Below the pieces are notes generated by a model that was given only the letters and a program-made list of their open reading frames with translations, was not told where the DNA came from and did no database searches. A stretch of DNA of 32,000 nucleotides from an uncultured Prolixibacteraceae bacterium (GTDB taxonomy: Bacteria > Bacteroidota > Bacteroidia > Bacteroidales > FEN-979): positions 23,538 to 55,537 of the forward strand of contig CAYSAU010000017.1 of NCBI GenBank assembly GCA_964429135.1, in the 5' to 3' direction. Below are positions 19,601 through 32,000 of this stretch, piece after piece; position 1 is the first letter of the stretch, and each line of letters starts with the position of its first letter. Made by a program: the position numbers and the translations under genes.

Positions 19601-19895
19601 TTTCTTCGCCAATGGTTCCTGAAACGCAGATAAACGGTGTCTCGGGACAAAGCTCCCTGCATATTTCCAAGGCTCCGAAAGCATCAAATCCCGGGAGTTT
19701 GAAATCAGCCAGGATGAGATCGAAGCTGGTTTCGCGCAGCAAGGCAGTGAAGCCTTCTTCATTCTCAACATGGGTCAGATCCAGTCGATAACCTGCAGTT
19801 AATAACTGTTCGCGCATTAACTCCATGTCCCTGAGTGAATCCTCCAGAACAAGAACCTTAAGTTCTTTGCTTTCGGTCTCTGTTTTTACCTTCAT
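16665..19895 (-). CDS. Hybrid sensor histidine kinase with receiver domains at both termini and multiple PAS domains
   Basis: 1076 aa. The N-terminal REC is VLVLEDS...LILADFKLPG. Several PAS/PAC-like repeats follow (for example GEYFRVACIRDITE and WAKAIISSIVNREGVITNFVSIKQDITDRK). The HisKA H-box is NISHEIRTPLNG. HATPase_c has G-boxes (DTGRGI, GSGLGLSI). The C-terminal REC is VLLAEDE...VLMDIKMPVMNG...TAYA. No TM segment is visible. Confidence 0.9.
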   Translation of the reverse strand: MKVKTETESKELKVLVLEDSLRDMELMREQLLTAGYRLDLTHVENEEGFTALLRETSFDLILADFKLPGFDAFGALEICRELCPETPFICVSGTIGEETAVELLKLGAVDYVLKDRHERLPIAVKRALEEARVKADYQKTSESLRKSESQFKSMFENMASASCLDEIIYENGKAVDYIILDMNPAYNRIIGKNRGEVIGIKASELYGTKKIPFLETYAQVAETGEPAEFEAYFPPLDKYLHVTAGCPQRGFFSTVFSDITQRKQAEEALRLSEKHKAFLAQTAFEMVELTSIQEIYTYTVHKLYELFEGHSIVALLEYDPSQNRWKIKHTEGIGKKTAELSRLLGFDINKLEGEISTKYYEKITSGRLEEMEFDFPGLFNDRLSAAIGNTVKKMFSIEKMYSIAFQQDTQIIGNVTFTTNTKSEPINTELIEAFIQQASIIIKKQKTEEKLKESEDRFKKLASFTFEGIIIHNNAITIDVNQSAVKMLGYERDELTGMHLFNLIHPVSHAIVKANLSKKVATPYQIKVIRKDGSTFDAEIEAKDIFYNGEYFRVACIRDITEHIQLEEQAIKLSRIVEQSSISVMITNIEGIIEYVNPFFTELTGYCFDEVKGKKTNILKSGHHSKAFYKEVWDTILSGNNWEGEFLNKKKSGELYWAKAIISSIVNREGVITNFVSIKQDITDRKRTLEALVAAKEKAQESDKLKTAFINNISHEIRTPLNGILGFGKLMLDEGISLEDKEKMLAMVQQSSNRLMNTVRDYMDMARIFSGTMEVHKKEFLLQPFFEEITKDVMQLCTSKSISFETDNHHDADLVLDSDPELIGKTLHALLDNALKFTERGSIGCGYKLNEGFVEFYVKDTGRGIAPKMLDEIFTMFTQEDPSDKRGHEGSGLGLSIASGLVKLLGGAISATSEKGKGSSFTFTVPYVVREHADKTLPAGKKNTSPVRKPLVLLAEDEESNYFYMEVVLRLAGCDYLLAKNGEEAVSLCKQYSDISLVLMDIKMPVMNGLEATTRIREFRPELPIIATTAYAQTGDEQRFLAAGCDGYLAKPIQKEKLFAILKQYSTLTATRDFVD

Positions 19896-19898
19896 CGT

Positions 19899-20345
19899 TT
19901 ATTCCATTGAGGGTTTTTCATTCAGCATGGCCCAGAACACGCCGATGTGTTTTACCGCTTCAAGAAAATCCTTGAAGTTTACCGGTTTCACCACATAGGC
20001 ATTGACACCCAGGGCATAGCATTTTTTCAGGTCGGATTCTTCGCGAGAAGCTGTAAGCATGACTATTGGAAGCATTTTTAATTTTTCATCGCGCCGGATG
20101 GCTTCCAGCGTTTCAATGCCATCCATACGAGGCATTTTAATATCCAGCAGCAGCACAACTGGGTTCCCCTTTTTACGGGTTTTGAACCGGCCTTCATAAT
20201 TCAGGTATTCCATTACTTCCACACCGTCGTTAGCCACAACCACCTGGTTCGCGAGCTTATGTTCCTTTAATGCTTCAAGGGTCAGTTCCACGTCCTGAGG
20301 ATTGTCTTCGGCTAGCAATATTGTTTTTAATTCATTCATGATCAT
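19899..20345 (-). CDS. Stand-alone receiver-domain response regulator
   Basis: ILLAEDNPQDVEL...LLLDIKMPRMDG...MLTAS...KP are the REC hallmarks, and there is no output domain. The start ATG overlaps the upstream kinase stop (TAATG). The stop lies 3 nt before the hybrid kinase start. Confidence 0.9.
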   Translation of the reverse strand: MIMNELKTILLAEDNPQDVELTLEALKEHKLANQVVVANDGVEVMEYLNYEGRFKTRKKGNPVVLLLDIKMPRMDGIETLEAIRRDEKLKMLPIVMLTASREESDLKKCYALGVNAYVVKPVNFKDFLEAVKHIGVFWAMLNEKPSME

Positions 20346-22375
20346 TACCCTTTGTTTTTTGGTAAACTGAAAAAGAATGTTGCCCCTTGACCGGGTTCTG
20401 CTTCGGCCCAAACCCGTCCTTTATGCTTATGAATAATGCGTTGTACATTGGCAAGTCCTATGCCTGTGCCTTCAAATTCGGCCACGGAATGTAGCCGTTG
20501 AAAAACGCCAAACAATTTGTGTGCATATTTCATATTAAAACCCACCCCGTTATCACGAACGAAAAATACGAAATTTTTCTCTTCCTCTTTGAAGCCAATG
20601 GATATTTCTGCCTTTTTGATAAACCGGGTAAATTTAACGGCATTCTCAAGCAAATTCACCCAAACCTGTTTCAGCAGGGAATAATCTCCCGAAACATGTG
20701 GCAATTCCTGTACTTCCCAGCGAATCTCTCTTTTTTCTGTATCTTGTTTTAAAGTTTCAACTACCTCCCTTACCAGCCTGTTCATTTCTATTTTGGTTTT
20801 TTGGACCTCCTGGCGGCCGGTTCTTGAGAACTTCAACAAATCATCGATGAGTGTTCCCATTTGTCCGGCAGCATCTGTTATAGTTGTCAGATAATATTGC
20901 GCTTTTTCGGGCAGGTCGGCGCTGAATTTATCAATCAGCAAATTTACGTATCCATTAATGTGGCGCAAGGGCGCCCGCAGATCATGGGAAACCGAATAAG
21001 TAAAAGCTTCAAGTTCCTTGATTGTTGCATCGAGTTGGGCAGTGCGGTCAATGACACGCTGTTCCAGTTGCTCGTTCAGTTTCTGGATCTCTTTCTCCGT
21101 GGTTTTGCGCTTGGTGATATCAGTCATAATATGCACAGCGCCAACTAATTCCTGGTTTTCGTCAAGAATCGGGTCCACCACCACTTCAAACACCGATTCG
21201 CCAAGAGCCAGTTCCATCAACTCTCTGTTTTTACTTATTCTTGTTCGCACGAATGGGCAATTTTCTATCGGATTTTCAGTACCGTGGATTAAATGAAAGC
21301 ACTGTTTTCCAAATGGATTACTTGAACCGCGCTCAATAATTTTTTGAAAAGCTTTATTCTGCTGAACTACCTTTTGATCACTATCGAGAATTGCAATCCC
21401 ATCTTGAATGGAATCAAAAGTTTTGCTCCAATGACGGGAGGCTTGCTGAATCTTTTGCTCGGCTTGCTTTTGTTCGGTGATATCTCTAAATTCAACAGTT
21501 CTGACAGTTTTTCCTTTATATGGGATATTTCTTGCTTCCAGTCTAATCGGATACAATTCTCCATTTTTGCGTAAACCAACGGCTTCATAAGGTTTTTCGT
21601 AGCCAGACAAAATATTATTCATAACCTTATCCCTTGTTTCCGGAGCGATAAGCAATAAACCGTCCATCCCAATCAGTTCATCGTAAGAATAGCCTGTTAT
21701 TTTCGAAAGTCCCTGATTGCACTCTAAAATAAGCCCTTTATCATGAATGGTAATACCGCCAAAAGAGGCATCATGCAAAGCTTTAAAGCGTTCTTCACTT
21801 TCGCGAAGCACCTGCTCCACCTGTTTAAGCTCCTTATTTGTTGCCTGATGTTTTTCATTGTCGCGGGATAATTTTTGAATGATATCGGCATCTCTGTAAT
21901 TTTCTGTCAACCCCAAAGAAAAAATCAACGCCAGATCCAGTTCAATCACTTTTTTGAATTGCAGCAATAACATTTCGTCCTCAGCACTAAATGGTCTTTC
22001 TTTATTGTCAAGCACACATATAGTCCCAAAAGGTGTTTGATCCGGGAAATTTATCGGATAACCGAGGTAAGCTATCATCCCGAGTTTTATATCGGGATTC
22101 TTCTCCCAATACTTATTTTTCAAGGCATTGGGAATGCGAAGCTTTTTTTGCGTTTTGATCACCGTTTCGCAATACAATCCATACCAATGATCTTTGTCGC
22201 CAACTTTATATGGATTATTTTCCGTTTCACTTGAAGTGAAAACTTCCATATATTCATTTTCGGTTTTCATGATCAAAGCTGCGGGAACATGCATAATACC
22301 TGCAATTAAGTTCGCTATTTCCTGCCACTTTTTTAAAAAACCACGAGGTATCTTCTCAAATGAATTTTCCTGCAT
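20345..22375 (-). CDS. Cytoplasmic sensor histidine kinase (GAF - PAS - PAS - HisKA - HATPase_c)
   Basis: 676 aa with no TM segment. There is an N-terminal GAF-like domain (GYPINFPDQTPFGTICVLDNKERPF) and two PAS domains (GGITIHDKGLILECN...; IAILDSDQKVVQQN...). The H-box is SVSHDLRAPLRHINGY. The ATPase G-boxes are DNGVGF and GTGIGLANV. Confidence 0.9.
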   Translation of the reverse strand: MQENSFEKIPRGFLKKWQEIANLIAGIMHVPAALIMKTENEYMEVFTSSETENNPYKVGDKDHWYGLYCETVIKTQKKLRIPNALKNKYWEKNPDIKLGMIAYLGYPINFPDQTPFGTICVLDNKERPFSAEDEMLLLQFKKVIELDLALIFSLGLTENYRDADIIQKLSRDNEKHQATNKELKQVEQVLRESEERFKALHDASFGGITIHDKGLILECNQGLSKITGYSYDELIGMDGLLLIAPETRDKVMNNILSGYEKPYEAVGLRKNGELYPIRLEARNIPYKGKTVRTVEFRDITEQKQAEQKIQQASRHWSKTFDSIQDGIAILDSDQKVVQQNKAFQKIIERGSSNPFGKQCFHLIHGTENPIENCPFVRTRISKNRELMELALGESVFEVVVDPILDENQELVGAVHIMTDITKRKTTEKEIQKLNEQLEQRVIDRTAQLDATIKELEAFTYSVSHDLRAPLRHINGYVNLLIDKFSADLPEKAQYYLTTITDAAGQMGTLIDDLLKFSRTGRQEVQKTKIEMNRLVREVVETLKQDTEKREIRWEVQELPHVSGDYSLLKQVWVNLLENAVKFTRFIKKAEISIGFKEEEKNFVFFVRDNGVGFNMKYAHKLFGVFQRLHSVAEFEGTGIGLANVQRIIHKHKGRVWAEAEPGQGATFFFSLPKNKG

Positions 22376-22436: not shown

Positions 22437-23183
22437 CTATTCCTGCGTTTTCTTCTTCAGGAAAGGGTAGAGGATACTGTACCCGTAGCCCAGTACAAGC
22501 ATCCCCATGCCCCACCAGAATGCCAGCGGAGAATCAAACCACCATAGCAGCGCAAAGATGACAATAAGCAGGATCATCGGTATCATCACAACTGGTTTTT
22601 TAGTAGGAGCCGGATAATGAATCCCTGAAACCTGAAGAATGATGGCTGCCGCCACGCTTAGAAATAACACCCCCTGTTCCCAGGCAGGCAAAGTCAACTC
22701 TTCGTCGGGAAGGAGAAGAAAAATCCACATCGCCACGAATCCGGCAATCAGCGTAACCGGTAAACCGGTATATCCTTTAAGTCCGCGTACCGTATCCATC
22801 ACCCGGAATTTCGATAACCGCATCGCACCGGAAGCGACCATCAATGTGGGGAAGAGGGACCTGACTGCCAGTGCCTGTCCGGGAAGTGTAACCGTAAACA
22901 CCAACACTGCCGGAGCGACCGAAAAAGAGAGGAAGTCGACGAAGGTATCGAGTTCGGCTCCAAATGCGCTGGTACCTCGCACCCAACGTGCTACCGCCCC
23001 ATCTAAGGAATCAAAAATCCAGGCCAGGAAGATGAGCAGACAACCCATAGCAACCGGTTCTCGCTCGTCATTAACCATTCCATGAAAAACGAAGATTATG
23101 CTTAGAAAACCGGAGAACAGCGCAAGTATGGTAATGCTGCAGGGAAGCCATTGCCTCCACCCGGAAATGGGGAAGATGTTCAT
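22437..23183 (-). CDS. pssA: CDP-diacylglycerol-serine O-phosphatidyltransferase (CDP-alcohol phosphatidyltransferase family)
   Basis: Signature D-x2-D-G-x2-A-R-x8-G-x3-D-x3-D is present in FDSLDGAVARWVRGTSAFGAELDTFVDF. The protein is polytopic, 248 aa. Confidence 0.8.
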   Translation of the reverse strand: MNIFPISGWRQWLPCSITILALFSGFLSIIFVFHGMVNDEREPVAMGCLLIFLAWIFDSLDGAVARWVRGTSAFGAELDTFVDFLSFSVAPAVLVFTVTLPGQALAVRSLFPTLMVASGAMRLSKFRVMDTVRGLKGYTGLPVTLIAGFVAMWIFLLLPDEELTLPAWEQGVLFLSVAAAIILQVSGIHYPAPTKKPVVMIPMILLIVIFALLWWFDSPLAFWWGMGMLVLGYGYSILYPFLKKKTQE

Positions 23184-23218: not shown

Positions 23219-23959
23219 TTATGCCAATCTTACTGTCATCAATTCAGCAACAGGCGTAACCCCAGCGGTGACCCATTCGCCCGGTTTGACCAGCATTCTT
23301 ACCTGCGGTTCGGGGAGGTAAAGGTCAAGGCGGGACCCGAATTTCATCATGCCGATACGTTCACCCTGCTTCACGGGAACGGAACGGGTTGTATCAGGCC
23401 AATATACCACTCGTCGCGCGATCGGACCCACGATCTGAAAAACCAGGCATCCAGTATATTTGTTTACGATACGGATCGCGTTATGCTGGTTCACAGCCGA
23501 AGATTTTTCTTTGATCGTCAACAGATGTTTCCCAGGGTAATAGCCCAGGAATTCAGATTCTCCACCGATTGGAGCCCGGTTCACATGGACATCCATCAGG
23601 CTCAGAAACACACTAATCCTAACCACCGGTACATTGGAAAATTCTTCCAGTTTGTCCACAGTGGTCATTTTCAGGCCGGAATCCAGACAGATTTTCCTGA
23701 ATTCAGCGGCTGAAAAACAGTTAATGCTGGTGACCTTCCCGTCTGCAGCCGATAAAATCAGGCGTTCATCCTCCTGAACATCCCGGTCTGGATCACGGAA
23801 AAACCAGATCAGGTAAGCCGTCAGGACTGTCAGAACCGGGATCATGACGACAAGCATTAGTTTGGATGATATCCCGGAGAAGGTCACGCTTGTTGCAATG
23901 ACTGCTCCTGTCAACCAGACTGCTACAAGATGCGATATGACCTCTTTTCGGATTTTCAT
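23219..23959 (-). CDS. psd: Phosphatidylserine decarboxylase proenzyme (short type)
   Basis: 246 aa with N-terminal TM helices. The self-cleavage region is GERIGMMKFGSRLDLYLP (G-S motif). It starts 1 nt after the CPBP-1 stop and ends 35 nt before pssA. Confidence 0.8.
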   Translation of the reverse strand: MKIRKEVISHLVAVWLTGAVIATSVTFSGISSKLMLVVMIPVLTVLTAYLIWFFRDPDRDVQEDERLILSAADGKVTSINCFSAAEFRKICLDSGLKMTTVDKLEEFSNVPVVRISVFLSLMDVHVNRAPIGGESEFLGYYPGKHLLTIKEKSSAVNQHNAIRIVNKYTGCLVFQIVGPIARRVVYWPDTTRSVPVKQGERIGMMKFGSRLDLYLPEPQVRMLVKPGEWVTAGVTPVAELMTVRLA

Positions 23960-23960
23960 C

Positions 23961-24863
23961 TTAAAAAGCTATTATTTCCCAGAAACCCAGTAGGATAAAC
24001 GCCAATCCCATCAGAAGATGGCAGATCACTACCCCAATCAGGTTATGATGTCTGGCATACAGCCATCCCCATAAAAGGCTGATTGAAAATGTCATCAGGG
24101 CAAAAGGGAGCGAATAGACCGTATGGATCGCACCAAAGATCAGAGAGACAGCAACTACTGACCAGAAAACTTTCCCTTTTCCCAACAGTATTAGTTCGGT
24201 AGAGCTCTGAATCACCCCTCTGATCAGAAACTCCTGTAGCGGAGCGCTGATGATGTAAGTGTAAAGAAACAAGGTACTCAGCTCCTCGAAGGCAATCAGC
24301 GATTTTCCCTTTAGCAATGTTTCGGAATGTATCATCACGATCTTGAGAACCACCAAACCGGCAACAATCACTCCGGAGGCAAGCAACGCCTCTGTAACCG
24401 ATTTTCTCCAGTTATTCAGGGTAACTCCATAGGCCGAAAGAGGAAAACCACTTTTACGTATCAGGAGGACCATCAGTACCACTTGGCTTAGCACGAAAAA
24501 TAACCCAAACCAACGTATCAAAACTGGTTTGGAAGCATCGAACAAACCAGGCTGATAGAAAAATGCAAGTAAAAAAATGTAAATACTGACTCCGATCGCG
24601 AACCAAAGGAGAAGACTCGAAGCAACCGTTCGTAATTTGAGGGACTCTGCCAGCTCCTCATTTTTTTGTTGCAGGGCAAACTCCCGTGCTTCCACCTTAA
24701 CCGACATCATGCCAAAGACCTCTGCCAGCTCGGCAACTTCCGGTGGGTTCCTGGTTTCGTCAGTATACTGTAATAAATCATCCACATTCTGGTAAGAACC
24801 CTGGGTGATCTTGCGGGCATGTTCAGTGATGGAGTGGATTGCTTCTTTTGTTTCTTCTGCCAT
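23961..24863 (-). CDS. CPBP (CAAX/Abi) family intramembrane protease homolog with an N-terminal HAMP-like cytoplasmic domain (paralog 1)
   Basis: 300 aa. The first ~75 aa are soluble (ITEHARKITQGSYQNVDDLL...PEVAELAEVFGMMSVKVEAREFAL). About seven TM helices follow, carrying CPBP motifs: SAPLQEFLIRG (QExxxR instead of EExxxR), IFGAIH (FxxxH) and a distal His in VICHLLMG. Confidence 0.8.
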   Translation of the reverse strand: MAEETKEAIHSITEHARKITQGSYQNVDDLLQYTDETRNPPEVAELAEVFGMMSVKVEAREFALQQKNEELAESLKLRTVASSLLLWFAIGVSIYIFLLAFFYQPGLFDASKPVLIRWFGLFFVLSQVVLMVLLIRKSGFPLSAYGVTLNNWRKSVTEALLASGVIVAGLVVLKIVMIHSETLLKGKSLIAFEELSTLFLYTYIISAPLQEFLIRGVIQSSTELILLGKGKVFWSVVAVSLIFGAIHTVYSLPFALMTFSISLLWGWLYARHHNLIGVVICHLLMGLAFILLGFWEIIAF

Positions 24864-24888
24864 GGTCTATATGGGGTACTGCATTGCC

Positions 24889-24896
24889 CAAAAATA
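24889..24896 (-). promoter_or_regulatory. Possible -7 box for the CPBP-1/psd/pssA operon
   Basis: CAAAAATA on the plus strand is the reverse complement of TAnnTTTG. It lies 25 nt upstream of the minus-strand ATG at 24863. Confidence 0.3.
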
Positions 24897-25030
24897 CAAA
24901 AACGATTTCATTTAATTGGCATATTGATGAGAGAGATCAGACTGATTACACCGATTTTACCCGAGGTTATCCTTAGTACCAGTGTCATTCGTGTTCTATT
25001 CTCAAATTGTAATAGAATTTGTCCCTAACG

Positions 25031-26830
25031 CTATTCCATCATTACATTAATACAAACTCCTGGTCCTGTATTGGCAATGATCGCCGGGGTAGAATACTCA
25101 ATAAACAGAGGTTTTTGTCCGGTTAACTTCTCCATAAATTCCAAATAAAACGCAACTTTTTCAGAGTCCTTGGCATGCGTAATAGCATAACCCCATACCG
25201 GTCGACCGGTAATCTCTTTCGTAACATTCCGGATAACATTCTGCAAACTACCCTTTAGCGAAAAGGATTTTGCAAAAACTTCGGCTGTTCCCTCATTGTT
25301 TATAGCAATGGCAGGCTTAATATCTAATAAGTTGGCAATGAAACCTTTTAGCGGACTTACCCGTCCGCTTTTTGCAATATACTTCAGAGAATCGAATCCC
25401 GCCCGTAAGATGATCTTTGATTTCCATAAAGGCACCCACTGCAGGATTTCTTCGTGCGAGGCTCCCGAAGCAATGGCGCGTGCAATCCTGAGTACCAGCA
25501 AGCCTTCTCCACCCGACAGGGAAGCTGAATTCACCACATCTATTCTTTTCTTATAGAGATTTTGCATTTCCCGGGCTACCTTCAGACTGGCCGCCCAGGT
25601 TCCCGTCATTTTTTCACTGAAATGGACAGCGATAACAGACTGGTAACGAGAGAGCAGATACTCATAGGTATGTTCAAATTCCCGGGCCGAATTTTGAGAG
25701 GTGGTTGGCCGGATCGATGAGGTTTTCATTTTCTCATAGAATTCCAGCGGCATCAGGGTGATCCGGTCAAGATAAAATTCCTCTCCGAAATGGAGGATGA
25801 ATGGGATCACATGAATCTGGTATTGATCCAGTATCTGTTGAGGCAGATCACAACCCGAGTCGGTCATTAAGGCGATATCCGACTTCCGGTTTAGCCGGAT
25901 CTCCTGCTGCATCACCATATCATCCGCTTTCTGGTAACTCAACGTTCCCATCTGTTGCAGATGGGCTACCATCTGATCCGGCCGATCGGTATGAAGATGT
26001 ATGTGAAGTTTACGGGGGGAACCGGCAACCACTAGAGAATCGCCTAGTTCTCCTATCTTTTCTGCTATTGTTTTCTTATCCAGCCGATCCCCTGAGATGA
26101 GCGCTTCAGTACAATACCGGTAAGTGATCTTCTCATGAGGAAGCTGAGACCATTCAGCTTGTTCCTCTTCATATGTATTTGGTAGAAAACTTCTTTCCTG
26201 GTCTCCATAAAGGAAGAAATCGCGGATCCCTTCCAGAAAAAAGACAAATCCTTTACCGCCGGCATCCACCACCTGGGCCCTTGCAAGCAGAGCCAGCTGG
26301 CTGGTCGTGGCTGCCAGGGATTCCAATGCCCGGTTGTAGGCTTCTGAAAACAAAGAAACAAAATCATCTACCCTGTCACGCAAGTTATACAAACAGTCAG
26401 CCCAGTCGCTGATCACCGTCAGAATTGTCCCTTCAACCGGGTTGGATATGGCTTCGTAAGCATACCTGACGGCTTGTTTCATGCTCTCTGCGAAGGAATT
26501 GATATTCAAAGTCTCATGGTCGGGGATCTCGTTGCTGAACCCATACAGGAACTGTGCAAAGATGATTCCGGAGTTTCCACGGGCTCCTGTCAGAGCAGCA
26601 TCGGCCATTGCAACAACTGTTCTCTTTGCATCACTATCAGGTTTGGTAGCCTCTGTCATATACCGCAACGTCCAGGCAAGATTAGTGCCCGTATCGGCGT
26701 CTGCTAACGGAAATACATTGATGTCGTTGAGCAGTTTCTGGTTTTGTGAAATGCGCTGTGCCCCGGCACGAAAGGCGTAATAGAGCTGCTGTCCGTCAAT
26801 TTTGTTGATTTGTTGGATAATCATTATCAT
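25031..26830 (-). CDS. DhaL/DAK2 domain - DegV domain fusion protein (single-chain fatty-acid-kinase-like)
   Basis: 599 aa. The N-terminal half has DAK2 motifs (LADADTGTNL, GARGNSG, VVDAGGKG) and a YloV/FakA-like central segment (YRYCTEALISG...LGDSLVVAGSPRKLHIHLHTDRP). The C-terminal ~290 aa has DegV hallmarks (IALMTDSGCDLPQQ, RPTTSQNSAREF). Confidence 0.85.
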   Translation of the reverse strand: MIMIIQQINKIDGQQLYYAFRAGAQRISQNQKLLNDINVFPLADADTGTNLAWTLRYMTEATKPDSDAKRTVVAMADAALTGARGNSGIIFAQFLYGFSNEIPDHETLNINSFAESMKQAVRYAYEAISNPVEGTILTVISDWADCLYNLRDRVDDFVSLFSEAYNRALESLAATTSQLALLARAQVVDAGGKGFVFFLEGIRDFFLYGDQERSFLPNTYEEEQAEWSQLPHEKITYRYCTEALISGDRLDKKTIAEKIGELGDSLVVAGSPRKLHIHLHTDRPDQMVAHLQQMGTLSYQKADDMVMQQEIRLNRKSDIALMTDSGCDLPQQILDQYQIHVIPFILHFGEEFYLDRITLMPLEFYEKMKTSSIRPTTSQNSAREFEHTYEYLLSRYQSVIAVHFSEKMTGTWAASLKVAREMQNLYKKRIDVVNSASLSGGEGLLVLRIARAIASGASHEEILQWVPLWKSKIILRAGFDSLKYIAKSGRVSPLKGFIANLLDIKPAIAINNEGTAEVFAKSFSLKGSLQNVIRNVTKEITGRPVWGYAITHAKDSEKVAFYLEFMEKLTGQKPLFIEYSTPAIIANTGPGVCINVMME

Positions 26831-26854
26831 CTTTTTATTTCAGGTAAAAGTATA

Positions 26855-26862
26855 TAATTTTG
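26855..26862 (+). promoter_or_regulatory. Candidate -7 box for the 363-aa/CxxCxxCC operon
   Basis: TAATTTTG fits TAnnTTTG and lies 15 nt upstream of the ATG at 26878. It is only 24 nt from the divergent DhaL-DegV start. Confidence 0.35.
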
Positions 26863-26877
26863 GTTCAGATTTTCGGG

Positions 26878-27966
26878 ATGATGAACTACAATAACATAAC
26901 TGGTATTGTAACAAACAAACTGACGTGGTCCGGTGACCAAGAGATGGTTGATCGGATGGCCAATCACTATCGGGTGTGGCAACTGCTGCGGGATAACCGA
27001 ACCTGGGCTTCTCCTCTTGTAGAATCTTATGCATTCACTCTGCTTCCGGAGTCGGTCAGTCTTTCCGATTGTCATGCCTTCATCAACCGGATGATGGATC
27101 TTTTCCTCCGGAATCCTTTTTTGGTAAGGTTTCTGGATAAAGCTTCCGGCAAGGCATTTCCGGTACTCCGGCACCGGTTGCAAACCGAAGGTCATAAAGT
27201 TATCACAGATGCCCTGGCATTCGCAATGGCACTGGAGCGACTCACCCGTGCCTGTTACCAGGATGCCCTGTTTTTTGAAGAGTGTATAAGGATCCTCCGG
27301 GAAAGAAGTAAAAAACAAAAGTCCTGGAACGCTATTCCCCTTTTCTATCAGATCAAAGCAATATCTCTTGAACCGGTAATCCGGTCGATGATAGGCGCCC
27401 ACAAGCGGCCACCCGAAAAACTTGGAAAGAGTTCTGGTTCCCGGGCGTTGCAGATCAATATTCTGGAAGCCACTTTTTCGGACTGGTTGATGGGATTGTA
27501 CGACAATGCCATGACAGGGTGGGTGTTGGCTATCCACAAAGCAGGAAAACACAGGATAGATCCTGCTACCGGTGCAGGACCGAACTTCTGGGAAGAGAGC
27601 CGGAAAGCCTTAGGGATCCGGCCTCCTTTGCCAGGGAAATGGGTTGACCTTTACCAGGCTTGGAATATGGCCTTTGTGTCAAAAATGTATGACTTTCCCT
27701 ATATCATAGCCAAATTACTAATCCCTCAGGTGGCTGATTACCAAAATCATTCGGAAATCTATATGTACAACAGAGTGATCGCTCTTTACCTGTATATGAG
27801 TTATTTTTCTTTTGACACAGCGGATCCGGAGCGAAGACTACTGATCCGGATGCGCTGGAATGACGAACAGTTGACTCGCACGTGGGGTAAAATCAACAGG
27901 GAATGCGCCAGAGAATATGTTCTCAGCGTCAGGCAGGCAAAACGGAGTCAACAACAAAAAAAATGA
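26878..27966 (+). CDS. Hypothetical soluble protein, family not recognised
   Basis: The track ORF opens at a TTG (26860); the first ATG is at 26878 (MMNYNNITG...), giving 362 aa. The protein looks helical, has no TM segment, and has a basic tail (RQAKRSQQQKK). Its stop overlaps the next start (ATGA at 27963..27966). It is preferred over the antisense ORF 26827..27552. Confidence 0.6.
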   Translation: MMNYNNITGIVTNKLTWSGDQEMVDRMANHYRVWQLLRDNRTWASPLVESYAFTLLPESVSLSDCHAFINRMMDLFLRNPFLVRFLDKASGKAFPVLRHRLQTEGHKVITDALAFAMALERLTRACYQDALFFEECIRILRERSKKQKSWNAIPLFYQIKAISLEPVIRSMIGAHKRPPEKLGKSSGSRALQINILEATFSDWLMGLYDNAMTGWVLAIHKAGKHRIDPATGAGPNFWEESRKALGIRPPLPGKWVDLYQAWNMAFVSKMYDFPYIIAKLLIPQVADYQNHSEIYMYNRVIALYLYMSYFSFDTADPERRLLIRMRWNDEQLTRTWGKINRECAREYVLSVRQAKRSQQQKK

Positions 27967-28511
27967 ACGAAAACCAGGTTCACCTAAAGATGAAACCATT
28001 ACCGGCCGGATTCCTGTTAAAGGTAAAATGGGCTGGTGCCCGGCTGATTTTCTTTTTCTTTTTGGCTTTAGGCTTACTTACCGGTGGAATCATCTGTTGG
28101 TTCTTTGCCCCTCTTTATTCCTGGTATTTCTTCGGTGAGTTCAACTTCACAAAATACATCCGGTTTATTTATCCCATTATGCTGGAGTGGATCAAAGTCG
28201 AAATCCGGTATATCAAACATAAGAAGTACCGCAACCATTTTCCGGTATCACTGACAGCGCCTCCCATGATGTTTCCCGAGAAAACTCATCTGAGAATAAG
28301 TCAAACCTGGATGGGACCCAAAGATAATTGCAACGGATGTATCCGCTGTTGTGTACTGGCGGAATGCCCTCTTATTGATATGCAACGGAAAACCTGTCTG
28401 AGCTATGGTACCTTTTTCTGGAGATACTTCCATTGCGGAAGATACCCGGAGAACCAGGAACAGATCGATTTTTACCAGTGTCCGAAATGGAGTTTTAAAG
28501 TTTTTCTCTAA
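27963..28511 (+). CDS. Membrane-anchored YkgJ/UPF0153-type cysteine-cluster (CxxCxxCC) protein
   Basis: Start is assigned to ATG 27963 (MNENQVHL...), giving 182 aa. There is one TM helix (LIFFFFLALGLLTGGIICWFFAPL). The CNGCIRCC motif is at 28329..28352. It is followed by CPLID...TCLSYG...FHCGRYP, the second half of the PF03692-like zinc/iron-chelating pattern. Confidence 0.65.
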   Translation: MNENQVHLKMKPLPAGFLLKVKWAGARLIFFFFLALGLLTGGIICWFFAPLYSWYFFGEFNFTKYIRFIYPIMLEWIKVEIRYIKHKKYRNHFPVSLTAPPMMFPEKTHLRISQTWMGPKDNCNGCIRCCVLAECPLIDMQRKTCLSYGTFFWRYFHCGRYPENQEQIDFYQCPKWSFKVFL

Positions 28512-28559
28512 AATTCAATTAAATTTATCAAAAAAATCTGACCTTAAAATCCCAGTTTT

Positions 28560-29405
28560 ATGAAAACAAATTTTTATGGTAAGATGCAATCCCTCGTTAA
28601 GTTTTTAGCAGTCGGACTGCTGTTATGGAATTGCAGTGGAGGAATCAGGGAACAAACGTCTCAAAAGACATCTGCTGATACTCTTTTTCCGGAAGCAAGA
28701 TTATCCACAGAAATCAAACAGGAGTTATACGCCTTGCCCACTCCGCTTGAAATCACGATAATTCTTGAAAAGAGCAGGGCAGGATATATTTTCGATATCA
28801 CCAATCCACCCGTGAATGCAGCGAAATATATCGCAGAAAGAGAAAAAGCGCTGAACCTGGGAGTTTATACCGCCGATTTGGCCTATTCTGCCACCTATGG
28901 TCAGAAGGATGCCACAAACAAGTTTCTGGCCTGTACGGCAAAATTATCGGATGAATTGAGCATAACCGGAATTTATGAGGCTGGACTGGTAGAACGGATC
29001 AAACGGGTGGGTAATAACCGTGACAGTTTGGTCGGTATGGTTGAAAATATACTGATGCATACTAGTTCTTTGCTTGCCCGGCAAAATCGCCATTATATTG
29101 CAGTACTGATTGCCACAGGGGCTTTCGTGGAAGGGTTATACCTTGCTGCAGAGCTGAATATTGTGGCGGAAAACAATACCTTGATCTCTTCGGCTATCCT
29201 GAAGCAAAAAGATCATCTTGACAAACTGCTCACCGTTATGGAAGCATTTCGCGAATGCCAGCAAATGGATGCTTTATTTCAACGACTAACATCGCTGCGA
29301 TCTGTTTTCACTGGTTTTGGCCTGAAACCAGGGAAATCACTGCCCCGAGAAAAGGCCATGGTGCTCAGCGATGTTGTAGAGAAAGTAAGAAACGAAATCA
29401 TATAA
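28560..29405 (+). CDS. Hypothetical lipoprotein (helical, periplasmic or surface)
   Basis: Lipoprotein signal with lipobox (KFLAVGLLLWNC-SGG). The 281-aa mature part looks alpha-helical and I recognise no catalytic motif. An alternative start is ATG 28584. Confidence 0.6.
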   Translation: MKTNFYGKMQSLVKFLAVGLLLWNCSGGIREQTSQKTSADTLFPEARLSTEIKQELYALPTPLEITIILEKSRAGYIFDITNPPVNAAKYIAEREKALNLGVYTADLAYSATYGQKDATNKFLACTAKLSDELSITGIYEAGLVERIKRVGNNRDSLVGMVENILMHTSSLLARQNRHYIAVLIATGAFVEGLYLAAELNIVAENNTLISSAILKQKDHLDKLLTVMEAFRECQQMDALFQRLTSLRSVFTGFGLKPGKSLPREKAMVLSDVVEKVRNEII

Positions 29406-29411
29406 TTATCA

Positions 29412-29460
29412 GAACCCGGAACTTGCTTCATTCGTCCGGATTCTTCCTTTCATTATTTCT
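29412..29460 (+). terminator. Candidate intrinsic terminator after the lipoprotein gene
   Basis: GAACCCGGA (29412..29420) pairs with TCCGGATTC (29435..29443): a 9-bp stem with one mismatch and a 14-nt loop. A T-rich tract follows (TTCCTTTCATTATTTCT). Confidence 0.45.
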
Positions 29461-29518
29461 GATTTCGTAATTGTATGCCAACCAACAATGTAATAATGGA
29501 TGAACACCTCCTTCTGTT

Positions 29519-30436
29519 ATGGAAAACCTGAACCCCAAAGTCATAAAAGCGCTGACCGAACATGCCAACGAGATCGTGGCAGGGTCGTATAAGAATGTAG
29601 ATCAAATTTTTAAGCTGACCGACCAGACTAAAAATTCACCCGAACTGGCCGAACTGGCCGAGACCTTCGGCATGATGACGGTAAAGATCGAAGCAAGGGA
29701 ATATGCTCTTGAAAACACCATTGAAGAGCTGAAAAAAAAGAATGTGCAGATAGAACTGCTGAACAACCAGCGGTCCCTGCTCAGTATTGTCTTTGTAGGC
29801 ATTGTCCTGCTGATCACATGCTATATTTTCGTTCTGGGTTTTATCCACGATCAAACCTTCTCCAATCAATTCATCGCAAAATTTGTCACCAATTATCCGG
29901 TAGTTGAGATTATCTCACTGATAGCAGTACTCATGATGGTTCTGACCAGTAACCTTCGCCTAAAAGATTTCGGTTTAACTTTTACAGGTTGGAAACGATC
30001 AGTCATAGAATCCTTGATCACTTCCGGTGCGTTTATTCTCCTGCTTGTGGTGATAAAGTATCTCAGCAACCGTTATCTTCCGGGTCTTTTCCGGGAAAAG
30101 AAACTTTTCGATCTCTCCTATTTTGGTGTCACCTACATCACCTATCTGGGGGTGGCTCCCCTCCAGGAGTTTATTGCCCGCGGGGCGGTACAGGGCACTC
30201 TGGAAAAGATCCTGGATCTCCGTTACCGGGGATTTTTTGTCATCCTGGTTACCACTTTTCTATTTGGAGCCGTGCACATGATGACTTCCCTAAACCTGGC
30301 AATAGTTTCGTTTATCACCGGGTGGCTCTGGGGCTGGATGTATCACCGTCAGAAAAATCTTATAGGCGTAAGCCTTTCTCATTTTCTGATCGGAAATATT
30401 TCGGGGCTGATGGGGTATTGGACTTTATTAGAATAG
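29519..30436 (+). CDS. CPBP (CAAX/Abi) family intramembrane protease homolog with an N-terminal HAMP-like cytoplasmic domain (paralog 2)
   Basis: 305 aa. The N-terminus LTEHANEIVAGSYKNVDQIF...PELAELAETFGMMTVKIEAREYAL aligns nearly residue-for-residue with paralog 1. CPBP motifs are VAPLQEFIARG (QExxxR), LFGAVH and SLSHFLIGN. Confidence 0.8.
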   Translation: MENLNPKVIKALTEHANEIVAGSYKNVDQIFKLTDQTKNSPELAELAETFGMMTVKIEAREYALENTIEELKKKNVQIELLNNQRSLLSIVFVGIVLLITCYIFVLGFIHDQTFSNQFIAKFVTNYPVVEIISLIAVLMMVLTSNLRLKDFGLTFTGWKRSVIESLITSGAFILLLVVIKYLSNRYLPGLFREKKLFDLSYFGVTYITYLGVAPLQEFIARGAVQGTLEKILDLRYRGFFVILVTTFLFGAVHMMTSLNLAIVSFITGWLWGWMYHRQKNLIGVSLSHFLIGNISGLMGYWTLLE

Positions 30437-30500
30437 AAACAAATTACCCATTTAAAAGAATAATACGACTCTAAGCTCACGAGGAGGAGGTTTGAGTGAT

Positions 30501-30530
30501 TTTGCTATCCCGAAAATTGTTATATCTTTG
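30501..30530 (+). promoter_or_regulatory. Candidate Bacteroidota sigma-A promoter for the dynamin-like gene
   Basis: TTTG at 30501..30504, an 18-nt spacer, then TATCTTTG at 30523..30530 (fits TAnnTTTG). It lies about 75 nt upstream of the ATG at 30606. Confidence 0.5.
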
Positions 30531-30562
30531 CACCCGGCAATGGAGTCTGCCATAAACCGTCC

Positions 30563-30604
30563 TGAATGACTGATGACTCCTGACTAAACGAAGTCAGTCA
30601 TTCA
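30563..30604 (+). promoter_or_regulatory. 5'-leader hairpin abutting the dynamin-like start codon
   Basis: TGAATGACTGA (30563..30573) is the perfect reverse complement of TCAGTCATTCA (30594..30604), giving an 11-bp stem and a 20-nt loop. TGACT recurs at 30567, 30574 and 30581 (7-nt phasing). The 3' arm ends 1 nt before the ATG at 30606. Confidence 0.5.
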
Positions 30605-30605
30605 A

Positions 30606-32000
30606 ATGCCCGAGTCACATCCATACAGGAATCAACCGGAGATGCCAGGTTTTCAGAATTTTCTGAAAACACTTGAGCAGTTTTACAGGCAATTGAACCT
30701 TCCTGAAAAATCTGATGAACTACAACGGATTGCTACAACGATTACTGCATCAGACTTCATCGATGTGGCCGTTGTGGGGCAGTTCAAGGCCGGAAAGAGC
30801 TCCTTTATCAATTCCCTCCTGGGAGAACAGGTCATCCCAACCGGGTTTCTGCCAGTCACTTCGGTCATAACCCGGGTCCGTTATGGCAAACACCTTGAGG
30901 TCATTTTAAAGCATCAAAACGGGCAGTCGGAGACCATTCCGCCTGAAAAGCTGATCGAGTATTGTTCTGAGCAGTTCAATCCCGGCAACAAAAAAATGAT
31001 TGAAGTCATCGATGTTTACCACCCCGTTCTGCGTGACATCTGGAAGATCCGCCTTGTCGACACCCCAGGCCTGGGAAGCATCTCTGAGGAGACCACCCAA
31101 GTGACTACCCGATGGCTGAATGAGGCCAGTTTCGCCCTTCTCATCATCAGCTCCGAGAGGCCGCTTTCTGCGGCAGACCTTGGAGTCGTCGAGGAGTTGA
31201 AGAAGATCTGTCCGAGGATTTCTCTGATCATCACAAAAATCGACCTTGTTCCGCAGGATGAACACCCGCGCCTGATGGAGTATATCCAAACCGGCATCTC
31301 ATCTATTTCCACGGATTACCCGATTCAGATCCTGGGATACTCCATCTATAACCATTCCGACGATTACAGAGGAAAGATCCTTCAACAGATCATCCGTCCC
31401 ATGCAGGAGCAGTTTGCTGACGAAAAGGCCTTGGTGTCGGTGCATAAGATCTCGGGCCTGGTCAGGGATTGCCTGCAGTACACGGAAATCGTCTTGCGAA
31501 GCCAGGAAAAGTTCAGGGACAATGAAAAGCAGCTGCTCGGGGTGATCAGTGAGATCGAAAAAAACAGAGAGCATTACAAGACGGAACTGCTATATACAAC
31601 AACTGCCTTCAAGGGTGAAGTGAGAGCGATGCTGGAGAATATCATTATCCCCTTCCAGGAAGAGATTATCCGGAAGCTGAACAGTTCTTTCGATAAGGAG
31701 ATGGAATTGCACAAGGGGATGCTGTACAAAGTGACCCGGTGGTTTGAGAAGTGGATCATCGATTCTATCCGCAGCGAGGTAAACCAGACTTATCGAGATA
31801 CTCTGCCGAAAATAGACTTGTTCCTGGATGGCAAGGCCGGATTTTACACCCATTTCATCAAAACCTTCCAGCAATCCTACAAACAGTTCATCCATGATCT
31901 CTACAGTGTCGATATCAGGATCGAACCCGTAAGCGTGGCTCCGTTACCTATCGGGACCCCTGATATTTCCGTTTACCGGATCTTTGATTCTCACCTGGAT
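30606..32000 (+). CDS. Bacterial dynamin-like GTPase, N-terminal ~465 aa; continues beyond the right edge
   Basis: Not in the ORF track because the frame is open to the window edge. Manual translation from ATG 30606 (in-frame TAA at 30585) runs uninterrupted to 32000. G1 is VVGQFKAGKSSFINSLLG (30777..30800). The G2 Thr is in LPVTS. G3 is DTPG (31059..31070). G4 is TKID (31233..31244). A long helical stalk-like region follows. An alternative start is Met13 (30642). Confidence 0.8.
   Translation, partial: MPESHPYRNQPEMPGFQNFLKTLEQFYRQLNLPEKSDELQRIATTITASDFIDVAVVGQFKAGKSSFINSLLGEQVIPTGFLPVTSVITRVRYGKHLEVILKHQNGQSETIPPEKLIEYCSEQFNPGNKKMIEVIDVYHPVLRDIWKIRLVDTPGLGSISEETTQVTTRWLNEASFALLIISSERPLSAADLGVVEELKKICPRISLIITKIDLVPQDEHPRLMEYIQTGISSISTDYPIQILGYSIYNHSDDYRGKILQQIIRPMQEQFADEKALVSVHKISGLVRDCLQYTEIVLRSQEKFRDNEKQLLGVISEIEKNREHYKTELLYTTTAFKGEVRAMLENIIIPFQEEIIRKLNSSFDKEMELHKGMLYKVTRWFEKWIIDSIRSEVNQTYRDTLPKIDLFLDGKAGFYTHFIKTFQQSYKQFIHDLYSVDIRIEPVSVAPLPIGTPDISVYRIFDSHLD

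Follow-up and report, generated by a model that had tools for sequence, protein, structure and literature searches.

Two HAMP-like-CPBP paralogs with an altered, invariant intramembrane site: candidate signal-controlled membrane regulators beside phospholipid genes

What is the role of two related intramembrane proteins that point away from each other on either side of four genes, carry a cytoplasmic module in front of their first transmembrane (TM) helix, and lack the Glu residue that serves as the general base in the protease Rce1? This question is raised by a stretch of 32,000 nucleotides, here called the window, from an uncultured Prolixibacteraceae bacterium (GenBank assembly GCA_964429135.1, contig CAYSAU010000017.1, positions 23,538 to 55,537; all coordinates below are those of the window). 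An earlier note had drawn attention to two open reading frames (ORFs) for proteins of 300 and 305 amino acids (aa), and both are present as described. We name the product of 23961..24863 (minus strand) CpbA and that of 29519..30436 (plus strand) CpbB. The two proteins are diverged paralogs that belong to a large, uncharacterised branch of the CPBP/Rce1 superfamily, and we tentatively suggest that their most likely role, even if well short of certain, is that of a signal-controlled, non-proteolytic membrane regulator. The features of the two proteins are:

23961..24863, minus strand: cpbA, A-type HAMP-like-CPBP protein, 300 aa, with QExxxR, FxxxH and HxxxG; PF02517 45.8 bits
24690..24839, minus strand: divergent HAMP-like unit of CpbA, residues 9-58
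24219..24236, minus strand: QEFLIR, motif 1 of CpbA, residues 210-215, within PLQEFLIRG
29519..30436, plus strand: cpbB, B-type HAMP-like-CPBP protein, 305 aa; PF02517 47.6 bits; AlphaFold2 (AF2) model with a predicted local distance difference test (pLDDT) score of 86.9
29543..29692, plus strand: divergent HAMP-like unit of CpbB, residues 9-58
30164..30181, plus strand: QEFIAR, motif 1 of CpbB, residues 216-221, within PLQEFIARG
30263..30277, plus strand: FGAVH, motif 2 (FxxxH) of CpbB, residues 249-253
30380..30394, plus strand: HFLIG, variant HxxxG of motif 3 of CpbB, residues 288-292, with Gly in the Asn/Asp column

CpbA and CpbB can be aligned from end to end by BLASTP with 35% identity, and the E value of 4e-63 excludes chance as the source of their likeness. 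The N-terminal segment that had been described as common to both is thus part of a full-length paralogy, and the first ~60 residues are indeed its best-conserved stretch. Over their C-terminal ~90 residues, both proteins pass the Rce1-like profile PF02517 (45.8 and 47.6 bits, cutoff 22.4), and Pfam reports nothing above threshold over residues 1-80. The AF2 model of CpbB, calculated with 85 homologs, has seven TM helices, in agreement with the count of about seven made from the sequence. With this model, Foldseek finds one single significant match in the Protein Data Bank (PDB), the structure 4CAD of MmRce1 (probability 1.0, TM-score 0.54-0.59, 237-245 columns), on which the model superposes. 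PDB sequence searches with CpbB alone, with an N-terminal profile and with a full-length profile retrieved no relevant entry, be it Rce1 or a HAMP chain. The family has kept the FxxxH motif, the His of motif 3, and the second Glu and the Arg of motif 1 of Rce1. In contrast to Rce1, it has Gln for the first Glu and Gly for the motif-3 Asn/Asp, it carries an N-terminal signalling domain and a coiled coil, seven rather than eight TM helices are predicted, and there is no prenyl-CAAX substrate context.

The intramembrane site deserves a closer look. The catalytic dyad of Rce1 consists of Glu140 and His173, Glu141, His227 and Asn231 are required in addition, and mutation of the general-base Glu or of the Asn severely impairs the enzyme (PMC12067869). 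The motifs EExxxR/FxxxH/HxxxB are considered the hallmark of proteolytically competent CAAX proteases (PMC12260438). For both proteins of the window, the first Glu of EExxxR had been read as Gln. To fix the register, point mutants of CpbB were scored against PF02517 (wild type 49.6 bits): Q216E raised the score by 4.1 to 53.7 bits, whereas E217Q lowered it by 5.0 to 44.6 bits, and the controls L215E and F218E lost 1.1 and 1.4 bits (48.5 and 48.2 bits). The gain with Q216E as opposed to the losses in the controls places the Gln in the first-Glu column, and the motif is therefore not intact. The same scan covered the other motifs: G292N and G292D gained 3.2 and 2.5 bits (52.8 and 52.1 bits), and H253A, H288A and R221A lost 5.7, 6.3 and 6.2 bits, respectively (43.9, 43.3 and 43.4 bits). 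Thus, motif 2 has the canonical FxxxH, motif 1 lacks the first Glu, the catalytic one, and motif 3 has lost its Asn/Asp to Gly, a second deviation that the earlier note had not mentioned.

These changes are a property of the whole family rather than of the window. Q210, E211, R215, F243, H247 and H282 (CpbA numbering) are invariant in an alignment of 18 sequences that includes distant relatives, as are F249, H253 and H288 of CpbB in 85 sequences, where G292 is nearly so. QExxxR is present in 116 of 120 homologs, with HExxxR in two and fragments accounting for the other two. Among 143 representatives at 50% identity, all intact members have QE, save one GGE variant, and the residue four positions after the motif-3 His is Gly in nearly all. 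The polar site has been remodelled and then frozen: QExxxR, FxxxH and HxxxG have taken the place of EExxxR, FxxxH and HxxxN/D. As judged from the alignments, the equivalents of both the general-base Glu and the oxyanion-hole Asn of Rce1 are gone, and the second Glu, the Arg and both His residues are invariant.

We favour a non-proteolytic role because every proven CPBP protease in the papers cited here keeps the canonical motifs, and because the characterised members with altered motifs, including APH-1, act without proteolysis. (i) APH-1 is a scaffold with a CPBP-related fold, the Gln-Glu pair in motif 1 (QExxR) and two conserved intramembrane His residues; it serves a membrane complex as a subunit that binds clients and has no catalytic role (PMC6588880). 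However, it is eukaryotic, has no signalling domain, and its spacing is QExxR rather than QExxxR; the kinship would be at the level of the superfamily only. (ii) SpdC/LyrA, SpbR and LnsB of Staphylococcus aureus and Abx1 of group B Streptococcus are CPBP-like proteins that bind membrane proteins without proteolysis, and they often control the synthesis of the envelope or of lipid polymers (PMC12260438, PMC7387801, PMC3578759). SpdC, LnsB and SpbR act without catalysis, and their motifs are degenerate (PMC12260438; PMC7387801) and poorly conserved, whereas the altered site of the family studied here is invariant. Moreover, for none of the four proteins has a cytoplasmic sensor domain been described, whereas such a domain is always present in this family. 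APH-1, SpdC, SpbR and Abx1, and probably LnsB, work by binding a client and regulating it.

The second element of our proposal is the N-terminal unit. It had been compared to a HAMP domain, and this likeness is suggested at the level of remote homology but does not reach the Pfam cutoff: the Pfam HAMP profile matches CpbA with E=0.023 (15.4 bits, profile positions 10-51 of 53) and CpbB with E=0.045-0.071 (13.9 bits), both under the gathering score of 25 bits. Among 33 N-termini of the family, HAMP is the commonest match (14 of 33, best E=2.4e-4). For profile-profile comparison, we used a reference HAMP profile of ten sequences, each of which scores 35-65 bits on Pfam HAMP; against this reference, hhalign gave 61% (score 25.7; column shuffles 9.3+-1.9, maximum 15) for the 33-sequence profile and 85% (85.1%; score 30.1; column shuffles 8.8+-1.8, maximum 15.4) for 57 diverse N-termini. 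The sole gap in the alignment is an insertion of seven residues in the connector. In the AF2 model of CpbB, helices span residues 6-20, 27-32 and 41-110, with a 20-residue connector that holds the helix 27-32. The layout is thus that of a HAMP domain, i. e. AS1 and AS2 (the amphipathic sequences) joined by a connector and AS2 continuing into the output helix: helix 41-110 runs from AS2 through a coiled coil into TM1 as one helix. The unit shares with HAMP (PF00672) a helix-connector-helix of matching length, the conserved Gly after AS1 and an AS2 of the xELAxLAxxFxxM type, and the 85% profile-profile match suggests a remote kinship; it differs in the connector, which is seven residues longer and contains a short helix, in the score under the Pfam cutoff, and in its position upstream of TM1 rather than downstream of TM2. 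A tandem duplication is seen in P0326, in which two HAMP-like units (residues ~10-100), reminiscent of poly-HAMP arrays, precede the CPBP domain. Taken together, the unit is best described as divergent HAMP-like on sequence grounds, short of formal Pfam membership. Its location at the extreme N-terminus with no TM helix ahead of it was correctly recognized earlier, and this position upstream of TM1 implies that the unit feeds into, not out of, the membrane domain.

How widespread is this architecture? A HMMER search of 1.84 billion representatives returned 873 clusters (50% identity) at E<=1e-30 and 1580 at E<=1e-10; the best matches are mostly 375-425 aa long. The family occurs in Bacteroidota, Deltaproteobacteria-type lineages, Firmicutes and Legionella. 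Every family member has an N-terminal cytoplasmic signalling module, and relatives of CpbA and CpbB carry a cyclic nucleotide monophosphate (cNMP)-binding, GAF or receiver domain in place of the HAMP-like unit. GAF domains were found in 6 of 10 longer forms that were examined, and a receiver domain in P0251 (396 aa). Instances of receiver-CPBP or GAF-CPBP proteins within the QExxxR family are P0251, P0247, P0260, P0262 and P0279, as well as L074, L076 and L080. According to the alignment, the HAMP-like, cNMP, GAF and receiver forms have the linker helix in common. Since the input domains are interchangeable at one position, the QExxxR CPBP domain can be regarded as a common signalling output module, and the suggestion that the paralogs transduce signals gains strong backing from these relatives. 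In public databases, members are annotated either as 'CPBP family intramembrane glutamic endopeptidase' or as 'cyclic nucleotide-binding domain-containing protein'. NCBIfam has no model for the QExxxR family, and the nearest, the myxosortase models, are matched far under their cutoffs. In the literature, we found no description of a cNMP-CPBP or CAAX/Abi plus cyclic-nucleotide-binding architecture, and no paper on QExxxR/HxxxG as a family trait. The family is a variant within a known superfamily rather than a new kind of system, and its function is what we infer here.

Two observations concern the cNMP-binding forms. In Legionella maioricensis (L010:5001-7132), the gene for such a homolog is followed by a gene for an Apyc1-like metallo-beta-lactamase, which is possibly a cyclic-nucleotide phosphodiesterase, and in L094:8382-10744 two tandem cNMP-CPBP genes overlap by a few bases. 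The resemblance of the cNMP-binding relatives to the cNMP domains of Pycsar effectors and the Apyc1-like neighbour would fit an anti-phage membrane effector that is activated by cyclic nucleotides and causes abortive infection as in Pycsar or CBASS. We consider this highly improbable: PADLOC had no match for any protein of the window and matched relatives via the shared cNMP domain only, a collection of 2.9 million viral contigs contains a single relative, and no cyclase gene is adjacent in the window. Moreover, the copies in the window are HAMP-like rather than cNMP-binding and reside with stable synteny in housekeeping lipid operons, which brings us to the genes around them:

25031..26830, minus strand: FakA-like (Dak2 + FakA_M) - DegV fusion, first gene of the minus-strand operon; Pfam Dak2, FakA-like_M and DegV
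26860..27966, plus strand: 368-aa protein (unk368) without family match, first gene of the plus-strand operon
27963..28511, plus strand: Cys8 partner, 182-aa membrane-anchored protein with CxxCxxCC and eight invariant Cys, identical to the database protein P0121
28560..29405, plus strand: putative lipoprotein of 281 aa, between the Cys8 partner and cpbB
23219..23959, minus strand: psd, phosphatidylserine decarboxylase (PF02666, E=1.6e-30), starting 1 nt past the stop codon of cpbA
22437..23183, minus strand: pssA-like CDP-alcohol phosphatidyltransferase (PF01066, E=6.6e-14), downstream of psd
16665-22375, minus strand: GAF/PAS histidine kinase (676 aa), response regulator and 1076-aa hybrid kinase, after pssA
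30606-32000, plus strand: dynamin-like GTPase gene that runs off the end of the window; in L013 it encodes 567 aa and is followed by a Na+/H+ exchanger

The geometry had been seen correctly: the paralogs point outward and enclose four genes, among them the fusion of DhaL and DegV, for which Pfam identifies Dak2, FakA_M and DegV. The enclosed protein without family match is encoded by an ORF of 368 rather than 363 aa, and the membrane CxxCxxCC protein is real, with a revised start at what is likely the ATG at 27963 (182 aa). The idea that the paralogs define or regulate a 4.6-kb cassette, however, is not supported: the bracket consists of two divergent operons back to back, fakA/degV-cpbA-psd-pssA on the minus strand and unk368-partner-lipoprotein-cpbB on the plus strand, and is not one functional unit but two separate, divergently transcribed modules. 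DNA-level inverted repeats flanking the region were not found, and hence the region is not a mobile cassette. The possible start codons of FakA/DegV and unk368 are only ~30-50 bp apart (window 26824-26878; public gene calls let FakA/DegV start at 26824, giving 597 aa), so that the promoters must overlap coding sequence. A scan for sigma-70 promoters and terminators gave counts near the shuffle expectation, with a consensus that may not fit this probably Bacteroidota host.

With NCBIfam, the FakA/DegV fusion passes the DegV domain model (227.5 versus a cutoff of 99.7 bits) and matches the YloV, FakA and FakB1 models under their cutoffs. No Pfam or NCBIfam match was obtained for unk368, the Cys8 partner or the putative lipoprotein, in which LLWNC is a predicted lipobox. 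pssA and the histidine kinase gene are on the same strand with a spacing of 61 bp, and the kinase and regulator genes may be in the same transcription unit as pssA. The window is 100% identical to the Logan contig L013 and 98% to a 347-kb contig of the European Nucleotide Archive, and its closest genome relatives are metagenome-assembled genomes (MAGs) of Prolixibacteraceae, Draconibacterium and Bacteroidales. In L014, a strain contig with 99.7% identity, trmE/mnmE takes the place of the dynamin-like gene after cpbB; the junction just past cpbB thus differs among strains. A tblastx search with positions 30437-32000 had no match in a subset of the collected loci.

For the analysis of synteny, we used 8 genome loci, 80 metagenome loci and loci from exact-protein look-up, the ORFs of which were searched with hidden Markov models and phmmer. 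CPBP proteins at least 52% identical to CpbB are called B-type, and those 44-100% identical to CpbA A-type. The Cys8 partner is encoded on the same strand within ~1 kb of a B-type CPBP, upstream or downstream, in 32 of 36 loci, and two of the remaining four are at contig ends. The two genes are separated by 0-38 bp in 26 loci and by 111 bp in L028, whereas the five loci that make up the window lineage (window, L003, L012-L014) have a spacing of ~1 kb, since the lipoprotein gene is inserted there. The partner also adjoins cNMP forms in Syntrophaceae, Syntrophomonadales and Clostridiaceae, GAF forms in L073-L080, and distant HAMP-like forms in L067, L071, L079 and L081/82. Independent hit lists of the CPBP family and of the partner agree exactly in 13 values for the length of the longest contig.

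The partner family comprises 146 members, all annotated as 'hypothetical' and none with a Pfam domain, and we found no paper on it. Its conserved features are the eight Cys residues (invariant or nearly so), a CPKW motif near the C-terminus and an LTAPP linker, which is invariant, unstructured and juxtamembrane. The AF2 model of the partner (pLDDT 88.4) has no Foldseek match in the PDB. The CxxCxxCC signature and the eight conserved Cys are reminiscent of YkgJ and the putative metal-chelating domain PF03692, whereas the N-terminal membrane anchor and the invariant LTAPP linker are additions of the partner. PF03692 matched none of 15 partner members at E<=10, and hhalign with verified E. coli YkgJ aligned only 12 columns at the Cys motif (5.7%). 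Some loci depart from the usual arrangement. The protein P0199 (L019:5001-5885) joins a cNMP-binding domain directly to the Cys8 module, and no CPBP gene lies within 5 kb, indicating that the partner itself can come under cyclic-nucleotide control. In Smithella sp. SDB (L015/L016, 3170-5507), again without CPBP, the partner gene overlaps the end of a gene for a PF00884 sulfatase-family membrane protein, which we take to be LtaS/EptA-like, and a PEMT gene is nearby. In L022/L023/L054 (e. g. L022:415-2727), the B-type CPBP is split into ORFs of 85 and 121 aa, and the partner and an A-type paralog are intact; the B copy looks like a pseudogene.

Could the paralogs be sorting proteases like the myxosortases MrtX, MrtS and MrtJ, with the Cys8 protein or the lipoprotein as the Cys-containing client to be processed? 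The nearest curated models for the CPBP core are indeed those of NCBIfam for MrtS, MrtJ and Mrt_core (E 1e-7 to 1e-9), and clients of that protease family bear an invariant Cys. We regard this as very unlikely: the scores of 21-37 bits are 3-5 times under the cutoffs of 75-130 bits, the catalytic Glu is missing, a C-terminal sorting signal of a TM helix plus basic tail is absent from the partner and its Cys residues form an eight-Cys cluster, and the lipoprotein is not conserved with the pair.

The other genes of the plus-strand operon are less constant. Homologs of unk368 in L003, L031, L033, L034, L036/37 and L039 indicate that this gene recurs with the B module in relatives from the Bacteroidota. 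The lipoprotein gene is lineage-specific: beside the CPBP-partner pair it occurs only in the window's own lineage and L003, and a homolog is found ~3.1 kb from distant HAMP-like CPBPs in L058/L059. The expected co-conservation of the paralogs with the genes between them was thus borne out widely for the Cys8 protein, yet with the B-type only, and not for the lipoprotein or the gene order. The A module, the B module and unk368 are clustered but reordered in L033, L034, L036/37 and L039, and in L033 the partner lies outside the CPBP pair.

A-type CPBPs have no adjacent Cys8 partner; their recurrent companions are lipid genes. They are encoded directly upstream of psd in five lineages (the window group, L003 with 90%, L061 with 72%, L033 with 63% and L024/25 with 44% identity). 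In addition to the window, pssA follows psd in L003, L024 and L033, and the FakA/DegV fusion gene is directly upstream of the A-type gene in four of the five lineages, including L003, L033 and L061. Of the role that had been proposed over enclosed and adjacent lipid genes, the linkage of the A-type to lipid genes holds (in relatives with 44-90% identity), whereas control of the cassette does not. An additional lipid head-group context is possible in L033:8153-10347 (minus strand) and likewise in L031, where unk368 is separated from the B-type CPBP gene by genes for a DUF3419 protein (E=2e-91) and a class I methyltransferase. The DUF3419 gene of L033 is presumably BtaA-like, and the pair may serve the synthesis of the betaine lipid diacylglyceryl-trimethylhomoserine (DGTS). 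In a census that covered 131 neighbour ORFs in 59 non-redundant loci, the recurrent lipid enzymes were Psd (3), PssA-type (3), DUF3419 (2), DegV/Dak2 (2) and PlsC-type acyltransferases (2).

This census also bears on the idea that CpbA and CpbB are ordinary Abi/CPBP proteins for bacteriocin self-immunity or bacteriocin processing. Membership in PF02517, which includes Abi immunity proteins, would be in line with this. However, families for bacteriocins, peptide export or peptide modification are absent from the recurrent neighbour families of the census and from the genes of the window, what lies nearby are genes for lipid synthesis and for the Cys8 protein, the motifs deviate from the canonical ones and a cytoplasmic signalling domain is always attached. 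This alternative of the earlier note thus finds no support, and we see next to no chance for it.

Three further observations were made in the neighbourhoods. B12-binding radical SAM enzymes with DUF4070 are encoded beside family members in three of the 59 loci (Radical_SAM in four). In a MAG of Draconibacterium orientale (L008, 691-4885), the cassette is degraded: FakA/DegV is split in two, there is no Psd, CpbA, partner or lipoprotein, and the ORF of unk368 continues into the final 42 codons of cpbB. The cause is either a genuine deletion or a fault in the assembly. Finally, L003:10946-11884 (minus strand) encodes a third paralog of the A-type, 55% identical to CpbA and convergent with cpbB. 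L003 is labelled as an Alphaproteobacteria MAG and is 78-90% identical to the Bacteroidota-type cassette, suggesting mis-binning.

How might a regulator of this kind work? We propose that the CPBP domain acts as an output module in the membrane and is under the control of a signal. The N-terminal bundle is probably dimeric, and changes of its state would pass down the long helix into TM1 and thereby alter the access to the conserved polar cavity. This cavity would bind a membrane-embedded client, which would be regulated rather than cleaved. For the B-type, the candidate client is the co-encoded eight-Cys membrane protein with the LTAPP linker as a possible docking segment; for the A-type, it may be a component of the co-operonic phospholipid pathway, i. 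e. the FakA/DegV fusion, Psd or PssA.

Several points weigh against this proposal. First, the Q, E, R, H and H residues are invariant over hundreds of clusters from several phyla, whereas known pseudo-proteases drift; a chemical function would account for this invariance just as well as a structural one. Second, fusions to cNMP, GAF and REC input domains are more typical of enzymes than of scaffolds. Third, physical contact of the CPBP proteins with the partner, Psd or PssA is predicted from synteny only. Moreover, many cNMP-type members and one HAMP-like clade have no partner, and the client can therefore not be universal, and apart from the partner no dominant family emerged from the census of neighbours. 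Finally, HAMP membership is under the Pfam cutoff.

Given the invariance of the altered site and input domains of a kind typically seen in enzymes, a signal-gated intramembrane hydrolase with a re-wired site is a serious rival, and we regard it as possible, if doubtful. Gln-Glu dyads are found in the eqolisin (G1) glutamic peptidases. In CpbB, E217 and H253 would activate water, and Q216 would supply the amide once given by Asn; the B-type would act on the linker of the Cys8 partner next to the membrane, and the A-type on a lipid or on a protein from the phosphatidylethanolamine (PE) pathway. It would be in good agreement with this that the Q, E, R, H and H residues are strictly invariant family-wide, that the E-to-Q and N-to-G changes were fixed together, that the input domains sense ligands or phosphorylation as is typical of regulated enzymes, and that the partner has its invariant unstructured LTAPP linker right beside the membrane. 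Moreover, a membrane hydrolase could supply the free fatty acids that FakA/DegV would use. However, the equivalent of the Rce1 general base is lost, and mutation of this Glu or of the Asn severely impairs Rce1 (PMC12067869). In addition, no CPBP protein with Gln at this position is known to be active, and the sole characterised precedent, APH-1, is a scaffold (PMC6588880). It is tempting to speculate even further that the QExxxR/HxxxG domain represents a new class of output domains: a membrane-embedded enzyme with a re-wired Gln-Glu/His site that is turned on or off through cNMP, a GAF ligand, phosphorylation or a reversed HAMP unit and that, with an eight-Cys metal or redox partner, would control phospholipid head groups (PE, perhaps DGTS or phosphatidylcholine). 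This we consider unlikely.

We thus return to the signal-controlled, non-proteolytic regulator and to what it would mean. CPBP/Rce1-like proteins are abundant in bacteria, and most of them have no known function. The subfamily described here is set apart by an invariant non-canonical site, an obligatory sensor domain and, in many lineages, a dedicated eight-Cys partner. The family is also a natural test of the contributions of the first Glu and the motif-3 Asn in the Rce1 family, and homologs are present in the cultivable hosts Paenibacillus, Brevibacillus and Legionella. If the CPBP domain is indeed an output module, second-messenger and two-component signalling would be tied directly to an intramembrane device and, in the Bacteroidota, to the synthesis of PE and the recycling of fatty acids.

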